Source: an uncultured Chromatiales bacterium
GTDB lineage: Bacteria; Pseudomonadota; Gammaproteobacteria; Poriferisulfidales; Oxydemutatoraceae
Reading direction: 5' to 3'
DNA length: 64,000 nucleotides
Assembly: GCA_964347615.1 (NCBI GenBank)
Contig: CAYFZO010000005.1
Span: 34,282 to 98,281 of the forward strand
Made by a program: the position numbers and the translations under genes. Shown piece after piece: positions 437 through 25,397 of the stretch (positions are counted from its first letter, which is position 1; each line of letters starts with the position of its first letter). Below the pieces are notes generated by a model. That model saw only the letters and a program-made list of their open reading frames with translations, had not been told where the DNA came from and ran no database searches.

Positions 437-868
437 TTACCTCGTGCGTTCGCATATTTCGTCGTCGTCGAAAAAGAACGCAATCTCGGTCTTTGCGGTG
501 TCGGGGGCGTCGGACCCGTGCACCGCGTTTTCGTCTATTGAAGAAGCAAAGTCGGCGCGCACGGTGCCGGGAGCCGCTTGCGCGGGGTCGGTCGCACCCA
601 TGATCTCGCGGTTGCGGACGATGGCGTTCGCACCCTCAAGCACTTGCACCAACACCGGCCCCGAGGTCATGAACTTGACCAACGCCGGGAAAAACGGGCG
701 CTCGCGATGCACCGCGTAAAAACCCTCGGCGCGCTCGCGCGTCAGGTGCAGCATCTTCGAGGCCACGATCCTGAGGCCGCCTTTCTCGAACCGGCTGCAA
801 ATTTCGCCGACGCAGTTGGCTGCAACCGCGTCGGGCTTGATGATGGATAGGGTGCGCTCAACGGCCAT
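437..868 (-). CDS. ndk: Nucleoside diphosphate kinase.
   Basis: 143 aa: [40 protein letters not shown]...HGSD. This is the canonical Ndk sequence, including the active-site His region. A good RBS (aaggaga) precedes the ATG. Confidence 0.95.
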
Positions 869-1159
869 TTCATCTCCTTGTGTTTTCCCCGGGTTCCGCG
901 TGAAATCGCTACATTACTATAACTTGCCGGCGGGCTGCACGGCGCAGCTTGGGTCGAAGCGGGGAAAGGAGAGATGAAGCACAAGCCTCGACGATGCGGA
1001 GCGCCGCTCCCCGCACGCGCCGACTGCCCGTTGGCGAAACGGCTCTTGTCTTTTCCGGTTTGATTTCTTCGGCAAATCAAGCCTTGCGGGCGTGAAGCCA
1101 CCGACGAACGGTGCCTGATCCACGACCGAACGGAAACGCAAGGTGAAATCTCTTCAAGG

Positions 1160-1175
1160 CAGAACATATAATCCC
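1160..1175 (+). promoter_or_regulatory. Candidate -10 element for the ATPase cassette.
   Basis: ACATATAATCC contains a perfect TATAAT about 65 nt upstream of the 1238 ATG. No convincing -35 was found. Confidence 0.3.
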
Positions 1176-1237
1176 TTTCGGTTATTTAACAGCCCCCGAT
1201 TCAACCGGGGTCTCTCTCCCACGCGGGGCTTAACACC

Positions 1238-2704
1238 ATGAAACTCAACGTCAAAATAGAAAATTTGGGGAAGCTGTCCCATGCGGATATTCAAATCCGC
1301 AATTTCACGGTGTTCGCCGGGCCGAACAACACCGGGAAGGCCTACGTTTCAAAGATGCTTTATTCCATATTGAACGTAATGAAAACCGAACATTTGGGGG
1401 AAATGCCAAGCAAAAAGGTTTTCCGTGCTGAACAAAGCCTAAAACGATTTGTCAGATATCTACCAGACACCGCGGAGGGAAAAGAAGAGTTTGCCGATGA
1501 AGCAAAAAACTATCTGAAAAAAATGTACGCGCTCTTTAGGGTCGCTAACGAGAAAAGCTTTGACCAAAAACTCAAGAGGATGAACGCCACGTTGGAAGAA
1601 AGGAAAGAAACAGCAAATAAAATCCTTTCTCTCTTCAAGGAGTTCAAAGATAAGCTGCCTGCAGAAGAAAGCGAGGAGCCGTCAGCCAAGGATTCCCGGT
1701 TTTGGCGCCTCCGCTTAGAATTTAATCTGGAGGATTTATCAAGAACAGCGAGTGAAAATGCGGAGCAGCTGGTCAGCGGTGAATTATCAGAAGATTTCAG
1801 GAGAAATCTAAGGGGGAATTTTGCAATCGAAGACGAAAGCAGCTTACGGTACAGCGGAAAAGAAACCGCTACAATCTCCTGTGAAGATTTAGGAACGTTT
1901 TCCATAGATGAATCGGGTGGCTCGGTTGAATGCCCCGTTGAAAACATCAAGAAATTTCAGGAATTCCCCAAACTCATTTATTTAGAATCACCCATTTACT
2001 GGAAGATGAAAGACGCTTTGGAGGCGTCTCGTTTCCGAGAAAGACGTGCGCTTGGTGTTCCTCAATACTTTTATGATTTGATGGCGGAGCTTCGAGAGAC
2101 AAAGGGCGAGGATTCCCGACCAATCTCTCATTTTCACGAATTGCACGGGCAAGTTTCTGAGGTGGTTGCACAGAGGCCTTTCATCTCAAATGAAAACCCT
2201 CGACAAATAGACCTCTTTCATGAGCTACATGAAGACATTACGGAAACAATCGGGGGGAAACTTGTCGTCTCAGACGAAAGCGAGCTGCTGTTTCAAGAGA
2301 ACGGACGAGAGTACCCGTTATCCGTTGCAGCGATGGGGGTAGTGAATTATGGAATGCTCGGTTTGCTCATAGAAAGAGGCATCATGGACGAAACGACTTT
2401 CCTGTTCATGGATGAACCGGAAGCCCACCTGCATCCCGAATGGCAGGTCAAAATAGCACGGACCCTTTTTGAGCTGGCAAAACTAGGAACCCGCGTGATT
2501 ATCGCAACCCACAGCGTTGACATCCTGGAATGGCTTGCGGTCGAAATCAAAGAGAACCCGGCCAGCGAGAAAATCATCGCCCTCAATCACTTCTCTACGA
2601 AAGGGAAAACCATGGACCACGAAGGGGATCTCGCGAGAAAACAATCCGCCATAATAGTCGAATTGACCGAACCCTTTTACGACCTCTACATGCGAGATCT
2701 GTAA
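1238..2704 (+). CDS. AAA_15/AAA_21-family (ABC/SMC-like, OLD-family-type) ATPase.
   Basis: 488 aa with a Walker A motif (FAGPNNTGKA), a Walker B/D-loop (TFLFMDEPEAHLHPEW) and an H-loop (IIATHSVD). Its GC is visibly lower than the flanks. Its stop codon abuts the ATG of the next gene (TAAATG), indicating an operon. Confidence 0.8.
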   Translation: MKLNVKIENLGKLSHADIQIRNFTVFAGPNNTGKAYVSKMLYSILNVMKTEHLGEMPSKKVFRAEQSLKRFVRYLPDTAEGKEEFADEAKNYLKKMYALFRVANEKSFDQKLKRMNATLEERKETANKILSLFKEFKDKLPAEESEEPSAKDSRFWRLRLEFNLEDLSRTASENAEQLVSGELSEDFRRNLRGNFAIEDESSLRYSGKETATISCEDLGTFSIDESGGSVECPVENIKKFQEFPKLIYLESPIYWKMKDALEASRFRERRALGVPQYFYDLMAELRETKGEDSRPISHFHELHGQVSEVVAQRPFISNENPRQIDLFHELHEDITETIGGKLVVSDESELLFQENGREYPLSVAAMGVVNYGMLGLLIERGIMDETTFLFMDEPEAHLHPEWQVKIARTLFELAKLGTRVIIATHSVDILEWLAVEIKENPASEKIIALNHFSTKGKTMDHEGDLARKQSAIIVELTEPFYDLYMRDL

Positions 2705-3343
2705 ATGTTCCTTAAGCCTTTTCACGAAGAAATTAAGCTGGATGAGAGCGGGCGTTCAAGTGGAAACGTTGAACTGCAGAACCCACCTACAGGCATTAAA
2801 GCAATCAAGGTTGATGGCAAAACTGAGTCATCTAACGGTCGAAGCTTATACGCTGAAGTGGGGTGCGGAAGTTGCCATTGTTGTGACTACATCTTGCTGA
2901 AACGCGAAGGAGAAAAAGGAAAGCGAATTCATTTTATAGAAATCTCTGATTTAGGAGAGAAAGAACATTTTTTACATAAGAAGTATAGGTACGTTAAAAA
3001 TCAAGAAAATAGACGCCGAATAGTACGCGAAGAAATTATCCGCGAGCAAGTCTTAAAAGTTTATGGAAGCCTCGTCGTTTTTCTTCGGCTACCTATCATC
3101 TCTAAAGCAGATTGGAGAAGAATTCCATTACAAAAACGTGACATAAATAAAGAAAAAAAAGCAATTTGCGGCAAAGAAGCAGTTTTTTGTTTTGTTATAA
3201 GTGGTCTTAAAACACCGAAAGGTACTCAATCTTTTGCTTATTTAAAAAACCGTTTAAGACCCGACAGATTCCCTTCATTTATATCCCACGTTCGCGTAAT
3301 GGGGGAGAAAGAATTTATAAAAGAGTACCGTCAGAGCGGCTAA
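2705..3343 (+). CDS. Uncharacterised 212-aa Cys-rich basic protein, partner of the upstream ATPase. No fold recognised by eye.
   Basis: The ORF is tightly coupled to the ATPase gene and is extremely AT-rich (about 37% GC by rough count) inside a ~65% GC genome. Motifs include EVGCGSCHCCDY, LKREGEKGKRIHF and CGKEAVFC. It is lysine/arginine-rich. Confidence 0.6.
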   Translation: MFLKPFHEEIKLDESGRSSGNVELQNPPTGIKAIKVDGKTESSNGRSLYAEVGCGSCHCCDYILLKREGEKGKRIHFIEISDLGEKEHFLHKKYRYVKNQENRRRIVREEIIREQVLKVYGSLVVFLRLPIISKADWRRIPLQKRDINKEKKAICGKEAVFCFVISGLKTPKGTQSFAYLKNRLRPDRFPSFISHVRVMGEKEFIKEYRQSG

Positions 3344-3383
3344 CCAAACTTTCAAGCAGCAACGTTACGTGCATACCGCGCAA

Positions 3384-3412
3384 GGACGTCCTGGACGTCA
3401 CCGGGGTTTTTT
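3384..3412 (+). terminator. Putative rho-independent terminator (possibly bidirectional) in the 80-bp gap between the cassette and the convergent iscX.
   Basis: GACGTCCTGGACGTC forms a palindromic stem, followed by ACCGGGG and a run of six T. The spacer before the T-run is suboptimal. Confidence 0.35.
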
Positions 3413-3421
3413 GAATCGACG

Positions 3422-3622
3422 TCACGCTTTCTCCTCGATCCACATCATCTGAATCGCTTCAAGCACTTTCTCGCCGCAGTGCGCGGGGTCGTCGTCGAAC
3501 TCCTCGAGCGCACAGACCCATTCGCGCAAGTCGGTGAAGCGCACGTATTGCGGATCCACGTCGGGATGCGCTTCGTCGAGCGCGATGGCGACGTCCCTGC
3601 TGTCGGTCCATTTAAGCCCCAT
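3422..3622 (-). CDS. iscX: Fe-S assembly protein IscX.
   Basis: [66 protein letters not shown] is near-identical in pattern to E. coli IscX ([24 protein letters not shown]...). The ORF-track entry 3422-3841 is this gene with a spurious in-frame 5' extension into fdx. Confidence 0.85.
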   Translation of the reverse strand: [66 protein letters not shown]

Positions 3623-3636
3623 GCTGGCGTTCCTCC

Positions 3637-3975
3637 TCAGTCGTTCTCTGAAACAAGATTGATAGTGTACTTCGGAATCTCGACCACCAAATCCTCGGTG
3701 GCGACCTTCGCCTGGCAACTCAGCCTCGAATCGGGGTCGAGACCCCAAGCCTTGTCGAGATAATCCTCTTCGTTCTCGCTCGGTTCCTCGAGCGAGTCGT
3801 AACCCTCGCGCACGTGCACGTGGCAAGTGGTGCACGCGCACGACTTCTCGCAGGCGTGCTCGATCTCGATGCCGTTCTGAAGCGCCGCGTCGCAGATGCT
3901 GATACCCGACTCGACCTCGATGGTCTTGCCTTCAGGGCAGAATTTCTCGTGCGGCAAAAACTGTATCTTCGGCAT
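3637..3975 (-). CDS. fdx: [2Fe-2S] ferredoxin of the ISC system.
   Basis: MPKIQFLPHEKFCPEGKTIEVESGISICDAALQNGIEIEHACEKSCACTTCHVHVREG...LSCQAKV matches E. coli Fdx almost motif-for-motif. The start is at MPKIQF; the track ORF begins 4 codons earlier. Confidence 0.9.
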   Translation of the reverse strand: MPKIQFLPHEKFCPEGKTIEVESGISICDAALQNGIEIEHACEKSCACTTCHVHVREGYDSLEEPSENEEDYLDKAWGLDPDSRLSCQAKVATEDLVVEIPKYTINLVSEND

Positions 3976-3983
3976 CGCGTGCA

Positions 3984-5870
3984 TCAACCGGCTTTGTCTT
4001 CGCTGAATTCCTCGACCGCGCGACCGCGCATCACGCGTTGGACGCTGCGGTTCATGCGCCGCGCGACGTAGGCTTCGCTGCTTTTCTCGAGCGCCTCTAT
4101 CGCGGCGGCGACGGCGTCGGGGTCGCCCGAACCGACGGCGTCCTGCACCCGTTTGCGGGCGGCGTCGATTGCGGCGCGTTCACCTGCTTCGAGCAGTTCG
4201 TCGCCGTCCGCGGCGAGCGCCGAGTCGAGCGCCTCGATCACGCGCTGCGCTTCGACCTCGCGTTCCCTCAAGCGTCGCGCTTCGACGTCCTCGGCGGCGT
4301 GCGTCATCGAGTCCTTGAGCATCGTCTCTATCTCTCCGTCGGACAAGCCGTAAGAAGGGCGCACTTCAACCCCGGCCTTGACGCCCTGAGTGGTCTCCTC
4401 GGCCTCAACCGTGAGCAGGCCGTCGGCGTCCACCTGAAAGGTAACACGGATGCGCGCCGCGCCCGCGACCAGCGGAGGAAAACCCCTCAGCTCAAAGCGC
4501 GCAAGCGAGCGGCATTCGTCGACCAACTCGCGCTCGCCTTGCACCACGTGAATCGACATGCCGGTCTGCCCGTCCTTGAAGGTCGTGAATTCCTGCGCGC
4601 GCGCGACCGGAATCGCGGTGTTCCTCGGAATGATTTTCTCGACCAGCCCGCCCATGGTCTCGATACCGAGCGACAGCGGTGCGACGTCGAGCAGCAACAT
4701 CTCACGTTGCACCGCGTTGCCGATCAACAGGTCGGCTTGAATCGCGGCACCGACGGCGACCACGCGGTCGGGGTCAACGCCGGTGAGAGGCTTGCGCGCG
4801 AACGTCTCCTCGACCCGACGGCGCACCAGCGGCACCCTCGTCGAGCCGCCGACCAGCACGACCTCGCCGACTTCCTGAGGAGACAACCCCGCGTCGTGCA
4901 GCACTTCACGGCACACCGAGACGACCTTCTCAAGCAACGGTTCGATCAGCCGCTCCACGTTCTCGCGGGTGAGACGTTGTTCCCAAGCACGTCCGCCGGG
5001 CAGCTCGACGCGGCGCACGACTTCCTCGGACTCGCTCAGCCGTTCCTTGAACGCGCGCGCTTCGCGCAGCAAGCCGCGCAAGACGGCGGGTTCCTCGTCG
5101 CCGCTCAGTCCGCCTTGCTCGGCCAGACGTTCGGAGATGAGCCGGTCGAAGTCGTCGCCGCCGAGTGCGGTGTCGCCGCCGGTCGCGAGCACTTGGAACA
5201 CGCCTTTTTCAAGCTTCAGCACCGACACGTCGAACGTGCCGCCGCCGAGGTCGAACACCACGATGATGCCTTCGCCGCCCTGGTCGAGACCGTAGGCGAC
5301 CGCGGCGGCGGTCGGCTCGTTCAACAGACGCAGCACCTCGAGGCCCGCGAGCTTCGCCGCGTCCTTGGTCGCCTGACGCTGGGCGTCGTCGAAATAGGCC
5401 GGCACGGTGACGACGACGCCGTCGAGAGGCGCGGCGAGCGCAAGCTCGGCACGTTGCTTGAGCGCCTTGAGAATCTCGGACGACACCTCGACCGCGGTCT
5501 TCGGCCCCGCCGCGGTTTCGATCCTTGCGACCGTGCCTTCGGCGTGAGTAACGCGGTAAGGCAGGCGCCCGCGCAACGCGTCGGCTTCCTCAGGGCGACG
5601 TCCCATCAGGCGCTTGACCGACGCAATCACGTTCAAGGGGTCGGTGAGCGCCGCGTCGAGCGCCGCGGTGCCGACGACAACCTCGTCGGACAGATAGCGC
5701 ACGACCGACGGCAAAGCGTGGCGGCCTTGTTCGTCAGCCAAGGTGTCGGCCTTGCCGTCCTGAACCAACGCAATCAACGAGTTGGTCGTGCCGAGGTCTA
5801 TGCCGGCGGCCAGACGCGGACGGCGCGGCTGTGGCGACTCGCCGGGCTCGCTGATCTGGATAAGCGCCAT
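3984..5870 (-). CDS. hscA: Fe-S cluster chaperone HscA (Hsp70 family).
   Basis: 628 aa: [12 protein letters not shown]...[10 protein letters not shown], the Hsp70 ATPase signatures. Its position between hscB and fdx also fits. Confidence 0.95.
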
Positions 5871-5876
5871 CGCGGT

Positions 5877-6434
5877 TCATTGACCGCCCGCGTGGGCGGC
5901 AGGCGTCAGGGCACGGCGGCGTGCGGTGCCGATCTCGTCGCGGAATTTGCGGATGAACTTCATCTTGAGCACGGTTTCGCGCGCGGCGTCAAGATTGCTT
6001 TCAGCGTAAGCGCGCTCGAAACTCCCGGTCAGGTCGATCATCCGTGCGCCGGCGTCTTGTTCGAGCCGCGTCAACGCAGCGGCGGGATTGTCGGCGGCGA
6101 CGCTTTGTTCAAGCGCCTCGCGCAGCTCCATCTGTTCCATCAGGAAATCGGGGTCGTTCAAGGTGTCGGGCTCGTCGTTGAATGCGACGCCTTTGAGCTC
6201 AAGCAGGTAAGCGGCGCGCGCGCAATCGTCGCTCAGCACCGCGTAGGCTTGATTGACCAGCGCGGCGCCTTGCATCGCAAGCCGCTTTTCCCGTGCCCCG
6301 GCGGTCGCGTAGCGATCGGGGTGCAACAGCGACTGCAACTCGCGGTACTTGCTTTCTATCCGCGCGGACTCGACGCTGAAACCCGTCGGTACGCCGAACA
6401 ACTCAAAATAATTGTCGGCGGGATTCAGGTTCAT
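5877..6434 (-). CDS. hscB: Co-chaperone HscB (J-domain).
   Basis: MNLNPADNYFELFGVPTGF...LHPDRY carries the J-domain HPD motif. The start is taken at the internal ATG (6434); the longer track ORF runs into iscA. Confidence 0.9.
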   Translation of the reverse strand: MNLNPADNYFELFGVPTGFSVESARIESKYRELQSLLHPDRYATAGAREKRLAMQGAALVNQAYAVLSDDCARAAYLLELKGVAFNDEPDTLNDPDFLMEQMELREALEQSVAADNPAAALTRLEQDAGARMIDLTGSFERAYAESNLDAARETVLKMKFIRKFRDEIGTARRRALTPAAHAGGQ

Positions 6435-6569
6435 GACCAAGCGGATGAAAACGCGGCGGCGAAAGCACCGGGCGACGAAACGGTTCTGAAGCGGCGTACT
6501 TCGGGAGACGTCTTGAGGGACGTCGGGAGGTACGGGGCCTGCGGTCGCGGCGGAAAAGACCGGCACGTC

Positions 6570-6893
6570 TTATACGTTGAAGCTTTCTCCGCAGCCGCAA
6601 CGCCCCTTCTCGTTCGGGTTGTTGAACCTGAAGCCTTCGTTGAGACCTTCCTTGCCGAAATCGAGCTCGGTTCCTTCGAGATACGCCAAGCTCTTCCGGT
6701 CCACCACCATCTTGACGCCCTTGTCTTCGAACACCTGATCGCCCTCCTCGAGCCGGTCGGCGTATTCGATGACGTAGGCCATGCCTGAGCAGCCGCTGGT
6801 GCGTACGCCGAGGCGTACGCCGAGCCCCTTGCCGCGCACGGCGATGTGCCGCCTGACCCGGTCCGCAGCGGCGTCGGTCAACGTAATCGCCAT
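6570..6893 (-). CDS. iscA: A-type Fe-S carrier IscA.
   Basis: 107 aa with the SGCSGMAY...CGCGESF cysteine motifs of IscA/HesB. Confidence 0.9.
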
Positions 6894-6947
6894 CGGGAGC
6901 CTCCCTGAAAAACCTCGTCGAAGCTTCGTCGAAATCCGGACGTCGCT

Positions 6948-7349
6948 TCAGGCGGATTTCTTGTGAAGGCCCGTCTGCTTTTGCTCGTAGTCCTTGATCG
7001 CAGCTTTGATCGCGTCTTCGGCGAGCACCGAACAGTGAATCTTCACCGGCGGCAACGACAGTTCCTCGGCGATTTGCGAGTTCTTGATTCGCTGCGCTTC
7101 GCCGAGGGTCTTGCCCTGCACCCACTCGGTGAGCAGGCTCGACGAAGCGATCGCGGAACCGCAACCGTAGGTCCGGAACTTGGCGTCTTCGATGACGCCC
7201 TGGTCGTTGACCTTGATTTGAAGTTTCATCACGTCGCCGCACGCCGGCGCGCCGACCATGCCGGTACCGACCTGCGGATCCGCCTTGTTCAGCGACCCGA
7301 CGTTACGCGGGTTTTCATAGTGATCAAGCACTTTTTTTCCGTATGCCAT
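6948..7349 (-). CDS. iscU: Fe-S scaffold IscU.
   Basis: GAPACGDVMKLQIKV...FRTYGCGSAIASSS...LPPVKIHCS are the hallmark IscU motifs. Confidence 0.95.
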   Translation of the reverse strand: MAYGKKVLDHYENPRNVGSLNKADPQVGTGMVGAPACGDVMKLQIKVNDQGVIEDAKFRTYGCGSAIASSSLLTEWVQGKTLGEAQRIKNSQIAEELSLPPVKIHCSVLAEDAIKAAIKDYEQKQTGLHKKSA

Positions 7350-7377
7350 GGTTTGATCCTCCTTTAAAGAATTCTTG

Positions 7378-8601
7378 TCAATGCACGACCCACTCGACGG
7401 AGTCGAGGTCCACGCCTTCCTTGAACATCTCCCACAACGGGGAGAGGTCCCGCAACTTGCCGACCGCGTTCTTTATCAGTTTCACGGTGTAGTCAACGTC
7501 TTCCGCCGTGGTGTAGCGGCCGATGGAAAACCTGATCGAGCTGTGCGCGAGTTCGTCGTTGCGGCCGATGGCGCGCAGCACGTAGCTCGGTTCGAGAGAA
7601 GCCGAAGTGCACGCCGAACCGCTCGAGACCGCGATGTCTTTCAACGCCATAATCAGCGACTCGCCTTCGACGAAGTTGAAACTGACGTTGAGGTTGCCGG
7701 CGACGCGGCGTTCAAGCGAGCCGTTCACGTAGACTTCCTCTATGTCTTTCAAGCCTTCCCACAATCTGTCGCGCAGTCCCTTGATGCGCTCGATCTCGGC
7801 GGGCATGACTTCCTTGGCGACGCGGAACGCCTCGCCCATGCCGACGATCTGGTGGGTTGCGAGGGTGCCCGAACGCATGCCGCGTTCGTGACCACCGCCG
7901 TGCATCTGCGCCTCGATGCGCACGCGCGGCTTGCGCCTGACGTACAGCGCGCCGATGCCTTTCGGCCCGTAAATCTTGTGTGCCGAGAAGCTCATCAAAT
8001 CCACTTCCAACTGCTTGAGGTCTATCGGCATCTTGCCCGCGCTCTGCGCCGCGTCAACGTGGAAAATGATGCCGCGCTCACGCGCGATCCGTCCGATCGC
8101 CTCGATGTCTTGAATCACGCCGATCTCGTTGTTGACGTGCATCACCGACACCAACACCGTGTCGTCGCGCAACGCCGCTTCAAATTTGCCGAGGTCGAGC
8201 AAGCCGTCCGATTCCGGTTCAAGATAAGTCACTTCAAAGCCTTCGCGCTCCAGTTGCCGACAGGTGTCGAGCACCGCTTTATGCTCGGTCTTGAGGGTGA
8301 CGACGTGCTTGCCTTTCTTGCTGTAGAAATGCGCCGCGCCCTTGATGGCCAGGTTGTCGGCCTCGGTCGCGCCGCTGGTCCAGACGATTTCCCTGGGGTC
8401 GGCGTTGACCAGCGCGGCGACGTGACCGCGCGCCTCCTCGACCGCTTCCTCGGCTTTCCAGCCGAACGAATGACTGCGTGAAGCGGGGTTGCCGAAAGCG
8501 CCCTCGGGGGTCATGAACTCGGTCATCTTCTTGGCGACGCGCTCGTCCACCGGCGTGGTCGCGTTGTAGTCGAGGTAGATTGGCAGCTTCATTTTGCTCA
8601 T
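7378..8601 (-). CDS. iscS: Cysteine desulfurase IscS.
   Basis: [16 protein letters not shown]...[22 protein letters not shown]...[17 protein letters not shown] is essentially collinear with E. coli IscS. The true start may be the MKLP ATG at 8592. Confidence 0.95.
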
Positions 8602-9101
8602 TACTGGGCCCTCTCCGGCAAGGCGTCGTCGTGGCGACGCACCGGTGCCGCGCGACGTTGTTCGAACAGACTGTCTTGACGCTTCGCAACCTTGACCGCT
8701 TCGCGTTCGGCGAGCACTTCGGCCAGCGAAGTGGCGTTGAGAAAATCGTATATCCTGTGGTTCAAGCTATCCCACAAACCGTGTGAGAGACAACGCTGGC
8801 TTCCTTGACAATCGGCCTTGCCGCCGCAACGGGTGTTGTCCACGCTTTCGTCCACCGCGCAGATTACGTCGCCCACCGAAATATCGTCCGACGTCTTCGC
8901 CAGCCTGTAACCGCCGCCGGGGCCGCGACGGCTCGCAACCAAGCCGCTCTTGCACAGCTGCGCAAACAGCTGCCCCAGATAAGAAGCCGGAATGTCCTGA
9001 CGCGCCGCGATGGCGGTGAGCGCCACTTCGCCGTCCTGGCTGTGCAACGCGAGGTCGAGCATCGCTGTTACCGCGTAGCGTCCTTTGGAGGTTACTCTCA
9101 T
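8601..9101 (-). CDS. iscR: Fe-S cluster transcriptional regulator IscR (Rrf2 family).
   Basis: [20 protein letters not shown]... is an Rrf2 HTH, and the spaced cysteines C92/C98/C104 (...[13 protein letters not shown]...) are the cluster ligands. Its stop overlaps the iscS start. Confidence 0.9.
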
Positions 9102-14199: not shown

Positions 14200-14745
14200 C
14201 TACAACAGCGAACGCGCGACGCGTTTGATTCCTTTGTAGATTTCCGGCGCCTCGGCGTCGAGCACGTAGTCCGGAATCCACCTGTTGTCCTTGTCTCCCA
14301 GCACCTGCTGAACGTGCTGGCCCAGGATGCGACGCATAGTGAAACTCGGTCCTTCGTCGGCGTCGAAGCTGCAATCGGAGTATTCATCGCCGCGACGGTT
14401 GACCAAGTCCACGAAGCCGCCCCTCGAAACGCTCTCGCCGACGTCGGCCCGGTTGTCGCGCATGATTTCAGCGACCCGCGCGGCGACCGCGCCGATCAAT
14501 CGCCGCCGGCGTTCCTCGTCGAGACGCACGTGCGCCAAGCGGTCGATCAAATGCAGCGAATACGCAAGCAACTCGGCAATCGCGTCGAGGCGCTGGGCGT
14601 TGGTTCGGGTCTCGAATCCTTCGTTCTCAAGGTTGAGCAGACTTTGTGAGGCGAGCTTCCATACGCTCATCGCCAGCGCACTCCCGGTTTCGCCGCATTC
14701 GCGCGCGCGGTCTTTCCGGTTCCATTTGGTCTTAAGTCGCACCAT
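14200..14745 (-). CDS. Hypothetical cytoplasmic protein (181 aa).
   Basis: This ORF is intact. Its first 82 codons are reiterated at 16577-16849 by the tandem duplication, so the duplication boundary (14502) falls inside this gene. Confidence 0.5.
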   Translation of the reverse strand: MVRLKTKWNRKDRARECGETGSALAMSVWKLASQSLLNLENEGFETRTNAQRLDAIAELLAYSLHLIDRLAHVRLDEERRRRLIGAVAARVAEIMRDNRADVGESVSRGGFVDLVNRRGDEYSDCSFDADEGPSFTMRRILGQHVQQVLGDKDNRWIPDYVLDAEAPEIYKGIKRVARSLL

Positions 14746-14784
14746 GCTCGTTTCTCCATGCCGACGTCTTATCTTGTCTGCAAT

Positions 14785-16236
14785 TTACCCGGTGAATGTC
14801 CGCGGGAACGACGCCGTTCCATGACGACCAGAATCAGGCTGGTCCAACATAGGGCGTGCAACGTAAACACGTATTTTCCCGTGGAAAATATGTTGTCGGA
14901 CTGCAAAAACAGCTGCGCCCAGATAAAGACCAGCATCCCGATTAATGAACGTCACGTCGCGGAAAAGCTTGACCCGCCCCCTGCGCGCCTGAACCGCGGC
15001 AAACCACGTGGACCCGACGAGCGCAAGCGCCGAGAGACCCGTGAATACCTTGCCCGCCGTAAAGTGCGCGTCCAGTCCCGCAGTATAAAAAGCATGGAGG
15101 TTCCTGACCCTGAGAAGTTCGTATATGAAACCCCTCACCGACTCCCAGTCCAGCGCACCCACCAAGTTTCCAAGTTCACGGTGATAGTTCCGCCCTGCCC
15201 TTCCCGTCATCCCTTTCGACAAAACCTCGGTCACCCACCCGCTTTCATAAGTGATTGTCCCGTCATAAAACCGCGACCACAGAACCGGGTCGCTGATCAA
15301 CCATTCATAAACGACGATTTTGGCCAATTGCCCGAGCATGAAGCAGGCCACAAAACCGACTATATAAAGCCCGACACACGCGACCGCCGACTTGATTTCC
15401 CCAGACGTGAAATAAATGAACGACCCGATCAGGGTCATTATAAGAATCGTATGACCGTCAAGCGTCCACACGTAAGACGACACCATCCCGGCGATAAAGC
15501 AAAAGAGGCGCAAGGATCCGGATGAAGCACGACTCCCGGCCAATAAAACCAAAACGACCGCCGACGCAACGGCCCACAAATGCCCCAGACCATCCGCCGA
15601 ACCGGGAAAATACCGGATGCCCGAAAAGAAAAAGCCGAAAACAATCAACGGAGAAAAAAGCAGAAACGTTCTCGGGTAAAACCGCAACAGAAAAACCGCC
15701 AGCAACAAATAAGCGAAATAAGTGACGGTTTTCGTCATTTCCCTGATCTCAAAAACCGAGAAATAACGCAACGCGACGGCGTGTAACGCCTTGCCTCCCC
15801 ACCAGTACCGGGTCTTCTCCAACCGGTCCCCAAACTCGGCGCCATCCACTGCAACCGAGGCCAACGCCGCACAATAAGCGCCGGGTGCTCTGTCGAAGCT
15901 CTTCAACAGCACGGCGTCAAGAAACGGAGTGGCGACGTCCGTTCTCGTGTAACCCCCTCTCAGTATCATCAGCGACGTCTGGCACTGTGCAAATCTACGT
16001 GTACCCCCTAAAAGCGTTATCGGATACGGCGTCTCGGAATACATAACCCACAAACTCGGGGAGTGCGTCCGCCCAAGATTGTTTTCCTTGAAAGCCGTCT
16101 CAAACCTTTGCTTCCCCAGCTCGTAAGGCAGTTGGTTACCGAGATAGTGCAGGAAAAAGAAAAGCACCGTGCCTGAAACGGCAACGGCGGCATACGTGAA
16201 AAACGATTTCAAGGAAAGTCCGGGAAGGCTGTGCAT
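14785..16236 (-). CDS. Polytopic integral membrane protein, duplicated copy 1 (483 aa from MHSLPG; an in-frame upstream ATG at 16380 would give 531 aa).
   Basis: There are multiple hydrophobic helices (YFAYLLLAVFLLRF, LLFSPLIVFGFFFSG, LWAVASAVVLVLLAG, ILIMTLIGSFIYF, VACVGLYIVGFVACFML) plus soluble N- and C-terminal regions. The apparent plus-strand ORFs over the same DNA are low-complexity antisense artefacts. Confidence 0.6.
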   Translation of the reverse strand: MHSLPGLSLKSFFTYAAVAVSGTVLFFFLHYLGNQLPYELGKQRFETAFKENNLGRTHSPSLWVMYSETPYPITLLGGTRRFAQCQTSLMILRGGYTRTDVATPFLDAVLLKSFDRAPGAYCAALASVAVDGAEFGDRLEKTRYWWGGKALHAVALRYFSVFEIREMTKTVTYFAYLLLAVFLLRFYPRTFLLFSPLIVFGFFFSGIRYFPGSADGLGHLWAVASAVVLVLLAGSRASSGSLRLFCFIAGMVSSYVWTLDGHTILIMTLIGSFIYFTSGEIKSAVACVGLYIVGFVACFMLGQLAKIVVYEWLISDPVLWSRFYDGTITYESGWVTEVLSKGMTGRAGRNYHRELGNLVGALDWESVRGFIYELLRVRNLHAFYTAGLDAHFTAGKVFTGLSALALVGSTWFAAVQARRGRVKLFRDVTFINRDAGLYLGAAVFAVRQHIFHGKIRVYVARPMLDQPDSGRHGTASFPRTFTG

Positions 16237-16333
16237 GACCGACGTTTCACACCTCTCCTGAAAAGGCACTCCAAAGACGCTCCAGAACCACGGGCTGCCG
16301 AAAAACGAAACGACAAAACGGAAAACCGAATGG

Positions 16334-16503
16334 GCGTCGGAATCCGCCGCTTTCCTGAAAAAGAACCGCCCGCCCGACAACGGCAGAGCGACCAGTGTCA
16401 GATAAGAATAATCTGCATGAGCGTCGGAATCCGCTGCTTTCCTGGAAAAGAACCGCCCGCCCGCCGACGGCAGAGCGACCAGTGTCAGATAAGAATAATC
16501 TGC
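16334..16503. repeat. Local tandem direct repeat, 2 x 83 bp with a 4-bp spacer, present in copy 1 only.
   Basis: GCGTCGGAATCCGC(C/T)GCTTTCCTG(A/G)AAAAGAACCGCCCGCCCG(A/C)C(A/G)ACGGCAGAGCGACCAGTGTCAGATAAGAATAATCTGC occurs twice. Copy 2 retains only part of one unit. Confidence 0.8.
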
Positions 16504-16576
16504 GGGTTTTCATTGTTCAATCGCGAAGCCGTAATGAACTCAAAGGATGAAATCGCCGGGGCGGCGAAAGCCCACT

Positions 16577-16849
16577 CTACCACGGGAGGCGCCGCCGACT
16601 TGCTTGCCGCCGGCGTTCCTCGTCGAGACGTACGTGCGCCAAGCGGTCGATCAAATGCAGCGAATACGCAAGCAACTCGGCAATCGCGTCGAGGCGCTGG
16701 GCGTTGGTTCGGGTCTCGAATCCTTCGTTCTCAAGGTTGAGCAGACTTTGTGAGGCGAGCTTCCATACGCTCATCGCCAGCGCACTCCCGGTTTCGCCGC
16801 ATTCGCGCGCGCGGTCTTTCCGGTTCCATTTGGTCTTAAGTCGCACCAT
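16577..16849 (-). pseudogene. Truncated duplicate (the first 82 codons) of the 14200-14745 gene, created by the duplication junction.
   Basis: The 90-aa ORF is identical to the N-terminus of the 181-aa protein through ...LDEERRR. It then reads junction-derived QASRRRLPW before a stop. Confidence 0.55.
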
Positions 16850-16888
16850 GCTCGTTTCTCCATGCCGACGTCTTATCTTGTCTGCAAT

Positions 16889-18340
16889 TTACCCGGTGAA
16901 TGTCCGCGGGAACGACGCCGTTCCATGACGACCAGAATCAGGCTGGTCCAACATAGGGCGTGCAACGTAAACACGTATTTTCCCGTGGAAAATATGTTGT
17001 CGGACTGCAAAAACAGCTGCGCCCAGATAAAGACCAGCATCCCGATTAATGAACGTCACGTCGCGGAAAAGCTTGACCCGCCCCCTGCGCGCCTGAACCG
17101 CGGCAAACCACGTGGACCCGACGAGCGCAAGCGCCGAGAGACCCGTGAATACCTTGCCCGCCGTAAAGTGCGCGTCCAGTCCCGCAGTATAAAAAGCATG
17201 GAGGTTCCTGACCCTGAGAAGTTCGTATATGAAACCCCTCACCGACTCCCAGTCCAGCGCACCCACCAAGTTTCCAAGTTCACGGTGATAGTTCCGCCCT
17301 GCCCTTCCCGTCATCCCTTTCGACAAAACCTCGGTCACCCACCCGCTTTCATAAGTGATTGTCCCGTCATAAAACCGCGACCACAGAACCGGGTCGCTGA
17401 TCAACCATTCATAAACGACGATTTTGGCCAATTGCCCGAGCATGAAGCAGGCCACAAAACCGACTATATAAAGCCCGACACACGCGACCGCCGACTTGAT
17501 TTCCCCAGACGTGAAATAAATGAACGACCCGATCAGGGTCATTATAAGAATCGTATGACCGTCAAGCGTCCACACGTAAGACGACACCATCCCGGCGATA
17601 AAGCAAAAGAGGCGCAAGGATCCGGATGAAGCACGACTCCCGGCCAATAAAACCAAAACGACCGCCGACGCAACGGCCCACAAATGCCCCAGACCATCCG
17701 CCGAACCGGGAAAATACCGGATGCCCGAAAAGAAAAAGCCGAAAACAATCAACGGAGAAAAAAGCAGAAACGTTCTCGGGTAAAACCGCAACAGAAAAAC
17801 CGCCAGCAACAAATAAGCGAAATAAGTGACGGTTTTCGTCATTTCCCTGATCTCAAAAACCGAGAAATAACGCAACGCGACGGCGTGTAACGCCTTGCCT
17901 CCCCACCAGTACCGGGTCTTCTCCAACCGGTCCCCAAACTCGGCGCCATCCACTGCAACCGAGGCCAACGCCGCACAATAAGCGCCGGGTGCTCTGTCGA
18001 AGCTCTTCAACAGCACGGCGTCAAGAAACGGAGTGGCGACGTCCGTTCTCGTGTAACCCCCTCTCAGTATCATCAGCGACGTCTGGCACTGTGCAAATCT
18101 ACGTGTACCCCCTAAAAGCGTTATCGGATACGGCGTCTCGGAATACATAACCCACAAACTCGGGGAGTGCGTCCGCCCAAGATTGTTTTCCTTGAAAGCC
18201 GTCTCAAACCTTTGCTTCCCCAGCTCGTAAGGCAGTTGGTTACCGAGATAGTGCAGGAAAAAGAAAAGCACCGTGCCTGAAACGGCAACGGCGGCATACG
18301 TGAAAAACGATTTCAAGGAAAATCCGGGAAGGCTGTGCAT
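16889..18340 (-). CDS. Polytopic integral membrane protein, duplicated copy 2 (483 aa).
   Basis: Over 99% identical to copy 1 at the protein level, with a single L7F difference in the compared region. Confidence 0.6.
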   Translation of the reverse strand: MHSLPGFSLKSFFTYAAVAVSGTVLFFFLHYLGNQLPYELGKQRFETAFKENNLGRTHSPSLWVMYSETPYPITLLGGTRRFAQCQTSLMILRGGYTRTDVATPFLDAVLLKSFDRAPGAYCAALASVAVDGAEFGDRLEKTRYWWGGKALHAVALRYFSVFEIREMTKTVTYFAYLLLAVFLLRFYPRTFLLFSPLIVFGFFFSGIRYFPGSADGLGHLWAVASAVVLVLLAGSRASSGSLRLFCFIAGMVSSYVWTLDGHTILIMTLIGSFIYFTSGEIKSAVACVGLYIVGFVACFMLGQLAKIVVYEWLISDPVLWSRFYDGTITYESGWVTEVLSKGMTGRAGRNYHRELGNLVGALDWESVRGFIYELLRVRNLHAFYTAGLDAHFTAGKVFTGLSALALVGSTWFAAVQARRGRVKLFRDVTFINRDAGLYLGAAVFAVRQHIFHGKIRVYVARPMLDQPDSGRHGTASFPRTFTG

Positions 18341-18581
18341 GGCCGACGTTTCACACCTCTCCTGAAAAGGACCGACCGCCCGACAACGGCAGAGCGACCA
18401 GCGTCGGATAAGAATAATCTGCGGGTTTTCATCGTTCGATAGCGAAGCCGAATGAGCTCAAAGGATGAAATCGCCGGGGCGGCGAAAGCCCACTCTACCA
18501 CGGGAGGCGCCGCCGACTTGCTTGCCGCCGGGGCGGCGACGCTCGACCGCCCGCCGGAGCAACGCGAGGTTTCGACCTATA

Positions 18582-25320: not shown

Positions 25321-25397
25321 GGGCGCGTAGCTCAGCCGGTCAGAGCACCGTCTTCACATGGCGGGGGTCGCTGGTTCGAATCCAGCCGCGCCCACCA
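25321..25397 (+). tRNA. tRNA-Val (anticodon CAC), with encoded CCA.
   Basis: It was hand-folded. The acceptor stem is GGGCGCG/CGCGCCC and the D-arm is GCTC-AGCCGGTCA-GAGC. The anticodon stem is CCGTC/GGCGG with loop TTCACAT (U33, anticodon CAC, A37). The T-arm is GCTGG-TTCGAAT-CCAGC, followed by discriminator A and CCA. Confidence 0.85.

Follow-up and report, generated by a model that had tools for sequence, protein, structure and literature searches.

The window that we analyzed is a 64,000-nucleotide stretch of DNA from an uncultured Chromatiales bacterium (GenBank assembly GCA_964347615.1, contig CAYFZO010000005.1, positions 34,282 to 98,281). Near its start lie two adjacent forward-strand genes, the first encoding an OLD-type ATP-binding cassette (ABC) ATPase and the second, at 2705..3343, a small protein that we call the partner. 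Our analysis indicates that the two probably form an anti-phage module, in which the protein encoded by 2705..3343 would be the nuclease effector and the upstream ATPase the sensor/regulator. The gene pair and a set of residues are conserved, the fold of the partner is confidently predicted, a profile-level link of moderate probability connects it to WonB, the small protein of the WonAB system, and some of the loci lie in type III restriction-modification (R-M) systems.

The ATPase-partner gene pair

The partner open reading frame (ORF) 2705..3343, on the forward strand, encodes 212 residues from an ATG start, stop codon included, and its ATG abuts the TAA stop of the ATPase ORF with no gap (TAAATG). 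With 39% GC in the partner and 46% in the ATPase, compared to about 62% in the genome, the pair is a low-GC two-gene island. It is flanked by ndk (437..868, reverse strand) and by the iscX-fdx-hscA-hscB-iscA-iscU-iscS-iscR genes (from 3422, reverse strand), and no direct or inverted repeats marking the island as a mobile element were found around the pair. The features of the ATPase gene and the candidate expression signals, all on the forward strand, are as follows.

1143..1172, +: sigma-70-like promoter candidate GTGAAA-18-TATAAT, about 65 nucleotides upstream of the ATPase start (consensus match)
1238..2704, +: OLD-type ABC ATPase of 488 residues (Pfam, PADLOC and PHROGs matches, and motifs)
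1319-1342, +: ATPase Walker A, GPNNTGKA (sequence motif)
2399-2434, +: ATPase Walker B/D-loop, FLFMDEPEAHLH (sequence motif)
2504-2515, +: ATPase H-loop, ATHS (sequence motif)
3388..3417, +: terminator-like hairpin (3388-3407) followed by a T-run, 45 nucleotides past the partner stop (consensus match)

The promoter- and terminator-like sites bracket the pair, and the position of the promoter candidate fits a bicistronic unit. Only these positions are suggestive, sites of this kind being no more numerous here than expected from shuffled sequence.

The ATPase matches AAA_15 (2.1e-20) and AAA_21 (1.3e-12) in Pfam, while its PADLOC matches include PD-T4-4_A (5.4e-28), PDC-M47A (1e-27), HEC-02A (2.8e-26) and Old (1.5e-12), with further matches to the GajA, PtuA, AriA and ATPase-Toprim models. 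It aligns across its full length with phrog_14430 (1e-72) and matches the OLD-family protein 6p74 among PDB sequences (1.5e-4). Its relatives number 636 at E<1e-10, and a tblastn search of INPHARED phages returned two weak partial matches. The ATPase motifs are invariant in a 25-sequence alignment, and the protein is most likely the sensor/regulator half of a two-gene module. In both sibling orthologs (L001:6525-8000 and L002:6534-8000), Walker A reads GLNNTGK instead of the GPNNTGK found in the window and in the family consensus; the change, P29L, hits a near-invariant position (at least 90% of the 25-sequence ATPase alignment).

Intact orthologs of the partner, with 88% and 81% identity, occupy the same ndk-iscX gap in two other long contigs from the same sample. 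Each likewise follows the same ATPase, the start and stop codons are conserved in all three strains, and the substitutions among the three orthologs are concentrated outside the conserved core.

The partner family and its predicted fold

The partner is a member of a widespread protein family that has no curated library model. As a single sequence it has no match in Pfam, NCBIfam or PHROGs, where the family sequences gave scattered chance-level matches only. A PDB sequence search found no match for the partner, nor any solved relative with the family or WonB profile. While a word-indexed protein search recovered three close orthologs only, and a family profile added little, the family was revealed by an exhaustive HMMER scan and by a locus scan anchored on the ATPase. 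The former, run with a three-sequence profile, gave 66 cluster representatives at E<1e-3, of about 180-200 residues. The latter covered 80 loci that encode ATPase relatives at 29-43% identity and are the best 80 of at least 367 confirmed among GTDB species representatives; the window's own species is not among these best 80. The ATPase homolog is directly followed by a homolog of the partner in 76-78 of the 80 loci (local hmmsearch E 1e-16 to 1e-76), the start of the second gene being within a few bases of the stop of the first. The loci span more than 10 phyla, with taxa that include Thermodesulfobacteriota, Latescibacterota, Nitrospirales, Gammaproteobacteria, Terriglobia, Verrucomicrobiota and Dehalococcoidia, and no third gene emerged as conserved when the flanking ORFs were clustered all against all. 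The intact orthologs, the cluster representatives and the homologs beside the ATPase bear out the view that 2705..3343 is a real gene rather than a chance ORF.

A large share of these loci come from sponge-associated metagenome-assembled genomes (Poriferihabitaceae, Spongiihabitans, Porisulfidus, Latescibacterota, Nitrospirales and Thermodesulfobacteriota). At L066:5401-5982, a 193-residue ORF downstream of an ATPase relative resembles a partner that lacks the Cys residues (…SVDY…LVEFSD…); the family hidden Markov model (HMM) did not retrieve it at E<1e-3. A tblastn search of plasmids with the partner found nothing.

We aligned the family in sets of 57, 33 and 144 sequences, with pairwise identities of 21-38% and a median length of 187 residues. 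The depth of the alignment changed what could be predicted. With the three close orthologs, AlphaFold2 gave a predicted local distance difference test (pLDDT) score of 43, while with the 57-sequence alignment pLDDT rose to 85.9, with a predicted template modeling score (pTM) of 0.83. The predicted order is strand-strand-strand-helix-strand, with pLDDT 89-98 around the invariant residues, and four insertions that the window clade carries relative to the family are modeled at lower confidence. This arrangement has the core of the restriction endonuclease (REase) superfamily, an alpha/beta fold with a mixed beta1-beta2-beta3-alpha-beta4 sheet, and about 21 of the top 60 matches are proteins that we take to have the REase fold. 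The partner most likely adopts a divergent restriction-endonuclease, or PD-(D/E)xK, fold. The earlier note, which had only the DNA to go by, saw no recognisable fold; this holds for the sequence libraries (Pfam, NCBIfam, PHROGs and PDB) but not once the family alignment feeds the structure prediction.

The three motifs singled out in that note (EVGCGSCHCCDY, LKREGEKGKRIHFIEISDLGEKEHF and CGKEAVFCFV) are all present in the translation of 2705..3343. They are listed here with the conserved elements of the family.

2813..2815, +: D37, end of beta1, in the family motif A-Y-R-M-D-G (140 of 140 non-gap sequences)
2855-2890, +: motif EVGCGSCHCCDY, residues 51-62 (translation)
2861..2890, +: Cys-rich loop of residues 53-62, G-x-G-x-C-x-C-C-D-Y, which runs into beta2 (alignment)
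2897-2971, +: motif LKREGEKGKRIHFIEISDLGEKEHF, residues 65-89 (translation)
2903..2917, +: REGEK, an insertion in the beta2-beta3 hairpin loop, between strands 62-67 and 73-81 (gapped in 100-136 of 144 members)
2939..2947, +: E79-I80-S81, the (D/E)xK position of beta3 (E79 in 143 of 144, within strand 73-81)
3044..3070, +: helix motif E114-x3-K118-x-Y120-G-S (K118 in 143 of 144, E114 in 127 of 144, Y120 in 134 of 144)
3167..3196, +: CGKEAVFCFV, beta4 core strand, residues 155-164 (predicted strand 159-165; family consensus K-K-Y-x-F-W-L-V)

Four residues, D37, D61, E79 and K118, are invariant across the three alignments. In the model, strand 32-35 ends with D37, strand 62-67 is immediately preceded by D61 (nucleotides 2885-2887), strand 73-81 contains E79, and the long helix 100-132 (pLDDT 97) carries K118 (nucleotides 3056-3058), which is the only invariant basic residue. 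D61 is found in 144 of 144 sequences, in the family motif G-L-G-x-C-x-C-C-D-Y. E79 ("FIE" in the window, h-L-I-E in the family) is the sole invariant acidic residue of the acidic stretch highlighted in the earlier note. That note likened the acidic stretch with EGEKG to metal-chelating Glu/Asp motifs, an idea that fails on conservation: EGEKG (residues 67-71) falls in the hairpin-loop insertion, which is confined to the window's clade. The third motif, CGKEAVFCFV, corresponds to strand 159-165, and neither of its Cys is conserved, the C155 column being mostly Q, G or E and the C162 column W in 104 of 144 sequences.

The partner has the Asp at the start of beta2 (D61) and the acidic residue in beta3 (E79) that characterize the REase superfamily, while the lysine expected two residues after the latter is absent in the window. 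Position 81 is T in 104 sequences, S in 32, including the window, and K in 5, so that five members retain the canonical IE-x-K. The single member with K118Q (P0155) carries K at position 81. That the sole member lacking K118 has K81 supports the alignment register, and the pattern suggests, without proving it, that K118 may replace the lost ExK lysine. Relocated or replaced catalytic lysines are known in the PD-(D/E)xK superfamily. From the predicted structure, we infer that D37, D61 and E79 form a putative metal-binding active site, with K118 presumably clustering with them in space.

Relatives among ATPase-nuclease systems and defense context

The "OLD-ABC ATPase + novel REase" operon described by Krishnan et al. 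in 2020 is said to correspond to WonAB. WonAB, from the WASA-1 prophage of Vibrio cholerae, is roughly the PADLOC system PDC-M29. It pairs an OLD-ABC ATPase with a "novel REase", both genes are needed for defense, WonB K71A is inactive, and WonB is toxic only with an active WonA ATPase (PMC12137116). Translation is inhibited with genomic DNA left intact, and the authors suspect an rRNA or tRNA target (PMC12137116). The window pair has the same layout, with the ABC ATPase gene first and the gene for a small protein of predicted REase fold second. In both WonA and the window ATPase, the lysine of Walker A is residue 34 and the Walker B/D-loop reads EPEAHL; the two are nevertheless distant, with BLASTP identity of 24% over parts and a PDC-M29A score of 3e-11 for the window ATPase vs. 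2.9e-28 for WonA.

For the partner, we compared profiles with sets of 9 and 13 WonB/Novel REase sequences drawn from the accessible part of the supplementary tables of PMC12137116. In these sequences, the signature is h-h-h-D-G ... C-D-[FY] ... h-F-h-E-L-K-G. Aligned by hhalign, the partner family reached a probability of 38% (E 3.4e-4) with the 9 WonB sequences and 71.5% (E 3.6e-5) with the 13 WonB/Novel REase sequences. In this register, D37 equals the Asp of VDG, C60-D61 equals CD and E79 equals the Glu of ELKG. The core h-h-h-D-G ... C-D-[YF] ... h-h-h-E is common to the partner family and WonB, its elements being in register and in identical order; it includes the Cys before the catalytic Asp that is seen in WonB-type nucleases (C60 96%, D61 100%) and D37-G38 at a strand end. 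There are also differences. WonB has about 145 residues and an invariant ELKG, whose K71 is essential, whereas the partner family is about 40 residues longer and shows T or S where WonB has that lysine (consensus L-I-E-E-T, window F-I-E-I-S, vs. E-L-K-G). Unlike WonB, the partner family also has a long helix with E-x3-K-x-Y-G-S and the Cys-rich GxGxCxCCDY loop. The WonB HMM retrieved none of the partner ORFs, no member was found with the family motifs in the accessible part of the WonAB/Novel REase tables, and the wonB primer sequence was not found in IMG/VR.

The PD-T4-4 system reportedly goes back to Vassallo et al. in 2022. PD-T4-4 and PDC-M47 are the best PADLOC matches of the window ATPase and have the same ATPase plus nuclease architecture. 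PD-T4-4 is composed of an ABC ATPase and a PD-(D/E)xK nuclease (bioRxiv 10.1101/2025.07.10.664194). The window ATPase matches PD-T4-4_A partially, with 96 bits, vs. 320 bits over the full length for a PD-T4-4-like ATPase at locus L001. The window partner matches PDC-M47B only among PADLOC models, and weakly (E=5e-4). Neither it nor the 57 family members matched PD-T4-4_B, and the window pair does not fall under the PADLOC/DefenseFinder definition of PD-T4-4. HEC-02 has a NERD PD-(D/E)xK partner, and both genes are required for defense (bioRxiv 10.1101/2024.01.29.577857). In HEC-02 (Payne et al. 2024), an ABC ATPase and a NERD nuclease are embedded in Hma systems, as the partner family is embedded in type III R-M at about 10 of 80 loci. 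Matches to HEC-02B are marginal and sporadic, being weak and found in 6 of 57 family members (best 1.5e-4), and, unlike HEC-02B, the partner has no significant NERD match in Pfam. More broadly, the pair resembles OLD, Gabija GajA, PARIS AriAB and Septu PtuAB, in which an OLD-type ABC ATPase sensor is coupled to a nuclease effector; the effectors of these systems are TOPRIM or HNH, whereas the partner is predicted to be REase-like and is a separate small protein. The pair is best read as a new subtype of the known abortive-infection systems made of an ABC ATPase and an REase-fold nuclease (PD-T4-4, WonAB and HEC-02).

The genomic surroundings point in the same direction. In the sibling strain (locus L001), the same ndk-iscX gap (869-3421 in the window) holds, besides a window-type pair, 1) three Transposase_mut fragments and 2) a PD-T4-4-like pair on the opposite strand (L001:8700-12412). 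The ATPase of the latter matches PD-T4-4_A at 5.6e-96, and its 157-residue partner, with CDY...FIELK, matches PDC-M47B (1e-6) and the WonB profile (5e-6). The window-type pair is a subtype distinct from the canonical PD-T4-4-like pair, the two co-occurring in one gap, and the presence of this second pair marks the ndk-iscX gap as a defense hotspot in this lineage. The L001 gap also holds a 110-residue ORF with a weak match to a type III methyltransferase C-terminus.

Of the type III R-M genes, Mod (N6_N4_Mtase), Res (ResIII) or both occur within 4 kb in 21 of the 80 loci. About 10 of the 80 have the pair between an upstream Mod and a downstream Res on the same strand, giving Mod-[ATPase-partner]-Res. 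An "embedded" gene arrangement of this kind was used by Payne et al. to predict defense systems. The Mod-pair-Res loci are L006, L017, L020, L026, L027, L028, L032, L037, L067 and L072 (about 1300-8900 in each).

Elsewhere in the window, 14502-18531 holds a tandem duplication of about 2.1 kb, in which a 300-nucleotide block (14502-14801) is repeated with 100% identity 2104 nucleotides later (16606-16905). This region has further repeats of 81-87 nucleotides (16323-16496, 16533-16613, 18329-18415 and 18451-18531) and paired ORFs on both strands (255 residues and 483/531 residues). A single tRNA gene, at 25321-25394, is the only Rfam match at the gathering threshold in the 64-kb window.

Proposed mechanism, alternatives and implications

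By analogy with WonAB, PD-T4-4 and HEC-02, we infer how the module may work, from complex formation and trigger to nuclease activity, substrate and abortive-infection outcome. The small nuclease would be bound and restrained by a dimer of the ATPase. Once infection is sensed, the ATPase would license the nuclease in an ATP-dependent manner, and the licensed, metal-dependent nuclease would cleave nucleic acid, leading to abortive infection. In the active site, K118 on the long helix may supply the positive charge of the missing ExK lysine.

Several observations weigh against this proposal. In 136 of 144 members (about 95%), among them the window protein with its S81, T or S stands where the ExK lysine is expected. 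The hhalign link to WonB spans about 37-51 columns at moderate probability, and typical members of the partner family match no PADLOC model at all. Foldseek, one of the checks that the earlier note had called for, gave no significant match in PDB or BFVD. Scans of IMG/VR viral contigs with the patterns applied detected no family member. Finally, among the three close orthologs, the ratio of nonsynonymous to synonymous substitution rates (dN/dS) has a range of 0.57-0.74 in the partner, compared to 0.37-0.75 in the ATPase; the partner value is high, which fits a fast-evolving defense gene but also relaxed constraint.

The partner might be REase-like but catalytically dead, acting as a nonenzymatic adaptor, sensor or ATPase regulator, for instance as a trigger- or DNA-binding subunit, with the toxic activity residing elsewhere or arising via ATP depletion. 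We find this unlikely. Invariance of three acidic residues, at the canonical places, and of a lysine in over 140 sequences as diverged as those of the family is unexpected for a decayed active site, and WonB, HEC-02B and PD-T4-4_B are treated as, or have been genetically shown to be, active nucleases.

Equally doubtful is a role of the Cys-rich loop (C57, C59 and C60, plus H58 or C127) as a true metal or redox site that forms an integral part of catalysis or regulation; the mechanism of the family would then differ from that of the usual Mg-dependent PD-(D/E)xK enzymes. C60 is near-invariant (138 of 144, or 96%), an equivalent Cys precedes the catalytic Asp in 13 of the 13 WonB/Novel REase sequences from the accessible tables and is also present in the PD-T4-4-like partner of L001, and in most members C57, C59 and C127 are found together (pairs in 81-100 of 144). 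The window clade lacks C127, where the window has Leu, and has gained C54. However, at every Cys position but that of C60, 12-28% of members have another residue, frequently F, L, V, Y or S, as for a buried core. C59 is kept in 127 of 144 (88%), with S as substitute, C57 in 110 of 144 (76%), with F, L, V or Y as substitutes, C127 in 72%, H58 in 46% and C54 in 6 of 144 (4%). There is thus no fixed set of three to four conserved Cys/His ligands, a pattern that misfits an obligate metal knuckle, and we know of no Zn or Fe-S motif with CxCC spacing. The Zn or Fe-S knuckle that the earlier note had read into CxxCxCC is therefore not borne out, the cluster being only partly conserved, and a zinc knuckle/ribbon or Fe-S cluster domain was rejected on conservation and fold grounds.

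A partner gene in decay, be it a low-GC relic or a pseudogene without current function in this genome, is very improbable. The dN/dS range of the partner, its atypical GC content, and the four window-clade insertions with their lower model confidence could be read in this way. Yet the frame is intact with start and stop conserved in all three strains, all four invariant family residues are kept, the substitutions cluster outside the core, and the ATPase keeps all its catalytic motifs. Least credible of all is a TOPRIM-like (OLD/RloB-type) nuclease in which EGEKG..E..D would chelate metal and a CxxCxCC Zn/Fe-S knuckle would stabilize the fold, a version of what the earlier note had suggested: OLD-type ABC ATPases such as the neighboring one are often coupled to TOPRIM nucleases and the window protein carries four Cys in seven residues, but the Glu plus DxD of the Rossmann-like TOPRIM fold has no counterpart here, with no conserved DxD and no TOPRIM, RloB or DUF4435 model matched (Pfam, PADLOC and NCBIfam), EGEKG is clade-specific, and the Cys ligand set is variable, its members giving way to hydrophobic residues or Ser.

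We therefore favor a nuclease effector under the control of an ATPase sensor/regulator. Between the two options that the earlier note had left for the partner, a strongly diverged representative of a known effector family or a new domain, the evidence favors the former, in this generic form only.

A bolder version of this reading is that the family is an as yet unmodeled branch of mini-nucleases coupled to ABC ATPases, with a rewired site in which the ExK lysine is lost, an invariant helix lysine is used, a Cys-lined loop adjoins the catalytic Asp and the Cys of the "CD" pair, invariant in WonB and PD-T4-4_B too, is a functional metal or redox ligand. We regard it as unlikely. If true, there would be a whole class with chemistry or substrate choice unlike that of classical Mg-dependent restriction-type DNases, for example cleavage of tRNA or rRNA.

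Two-gene systems composed of an ABC ATPase and a nuclease, such as PD-T4-4, WonAB, HEC-02, PARIS and Gabija, make up a major class of bacterial immunity, of which our finding would define a further subtype. Since the partner family has no Pfam, NCBIfam or PHROG model, and its typical members have no PADLOC match, current defense-finding tools would not name the effector. In practical terms, the family offers an HMM with which to annotate such genes and a set of defined point mutants. The Cys-Asp pair is common to the partner family, WonB and the PD-T4-4_B mini-nucleases, and the putative effector, in which D, D and E are kept and the lysine may have been relocated, would be a natural experiment on the plasticity of active sites.

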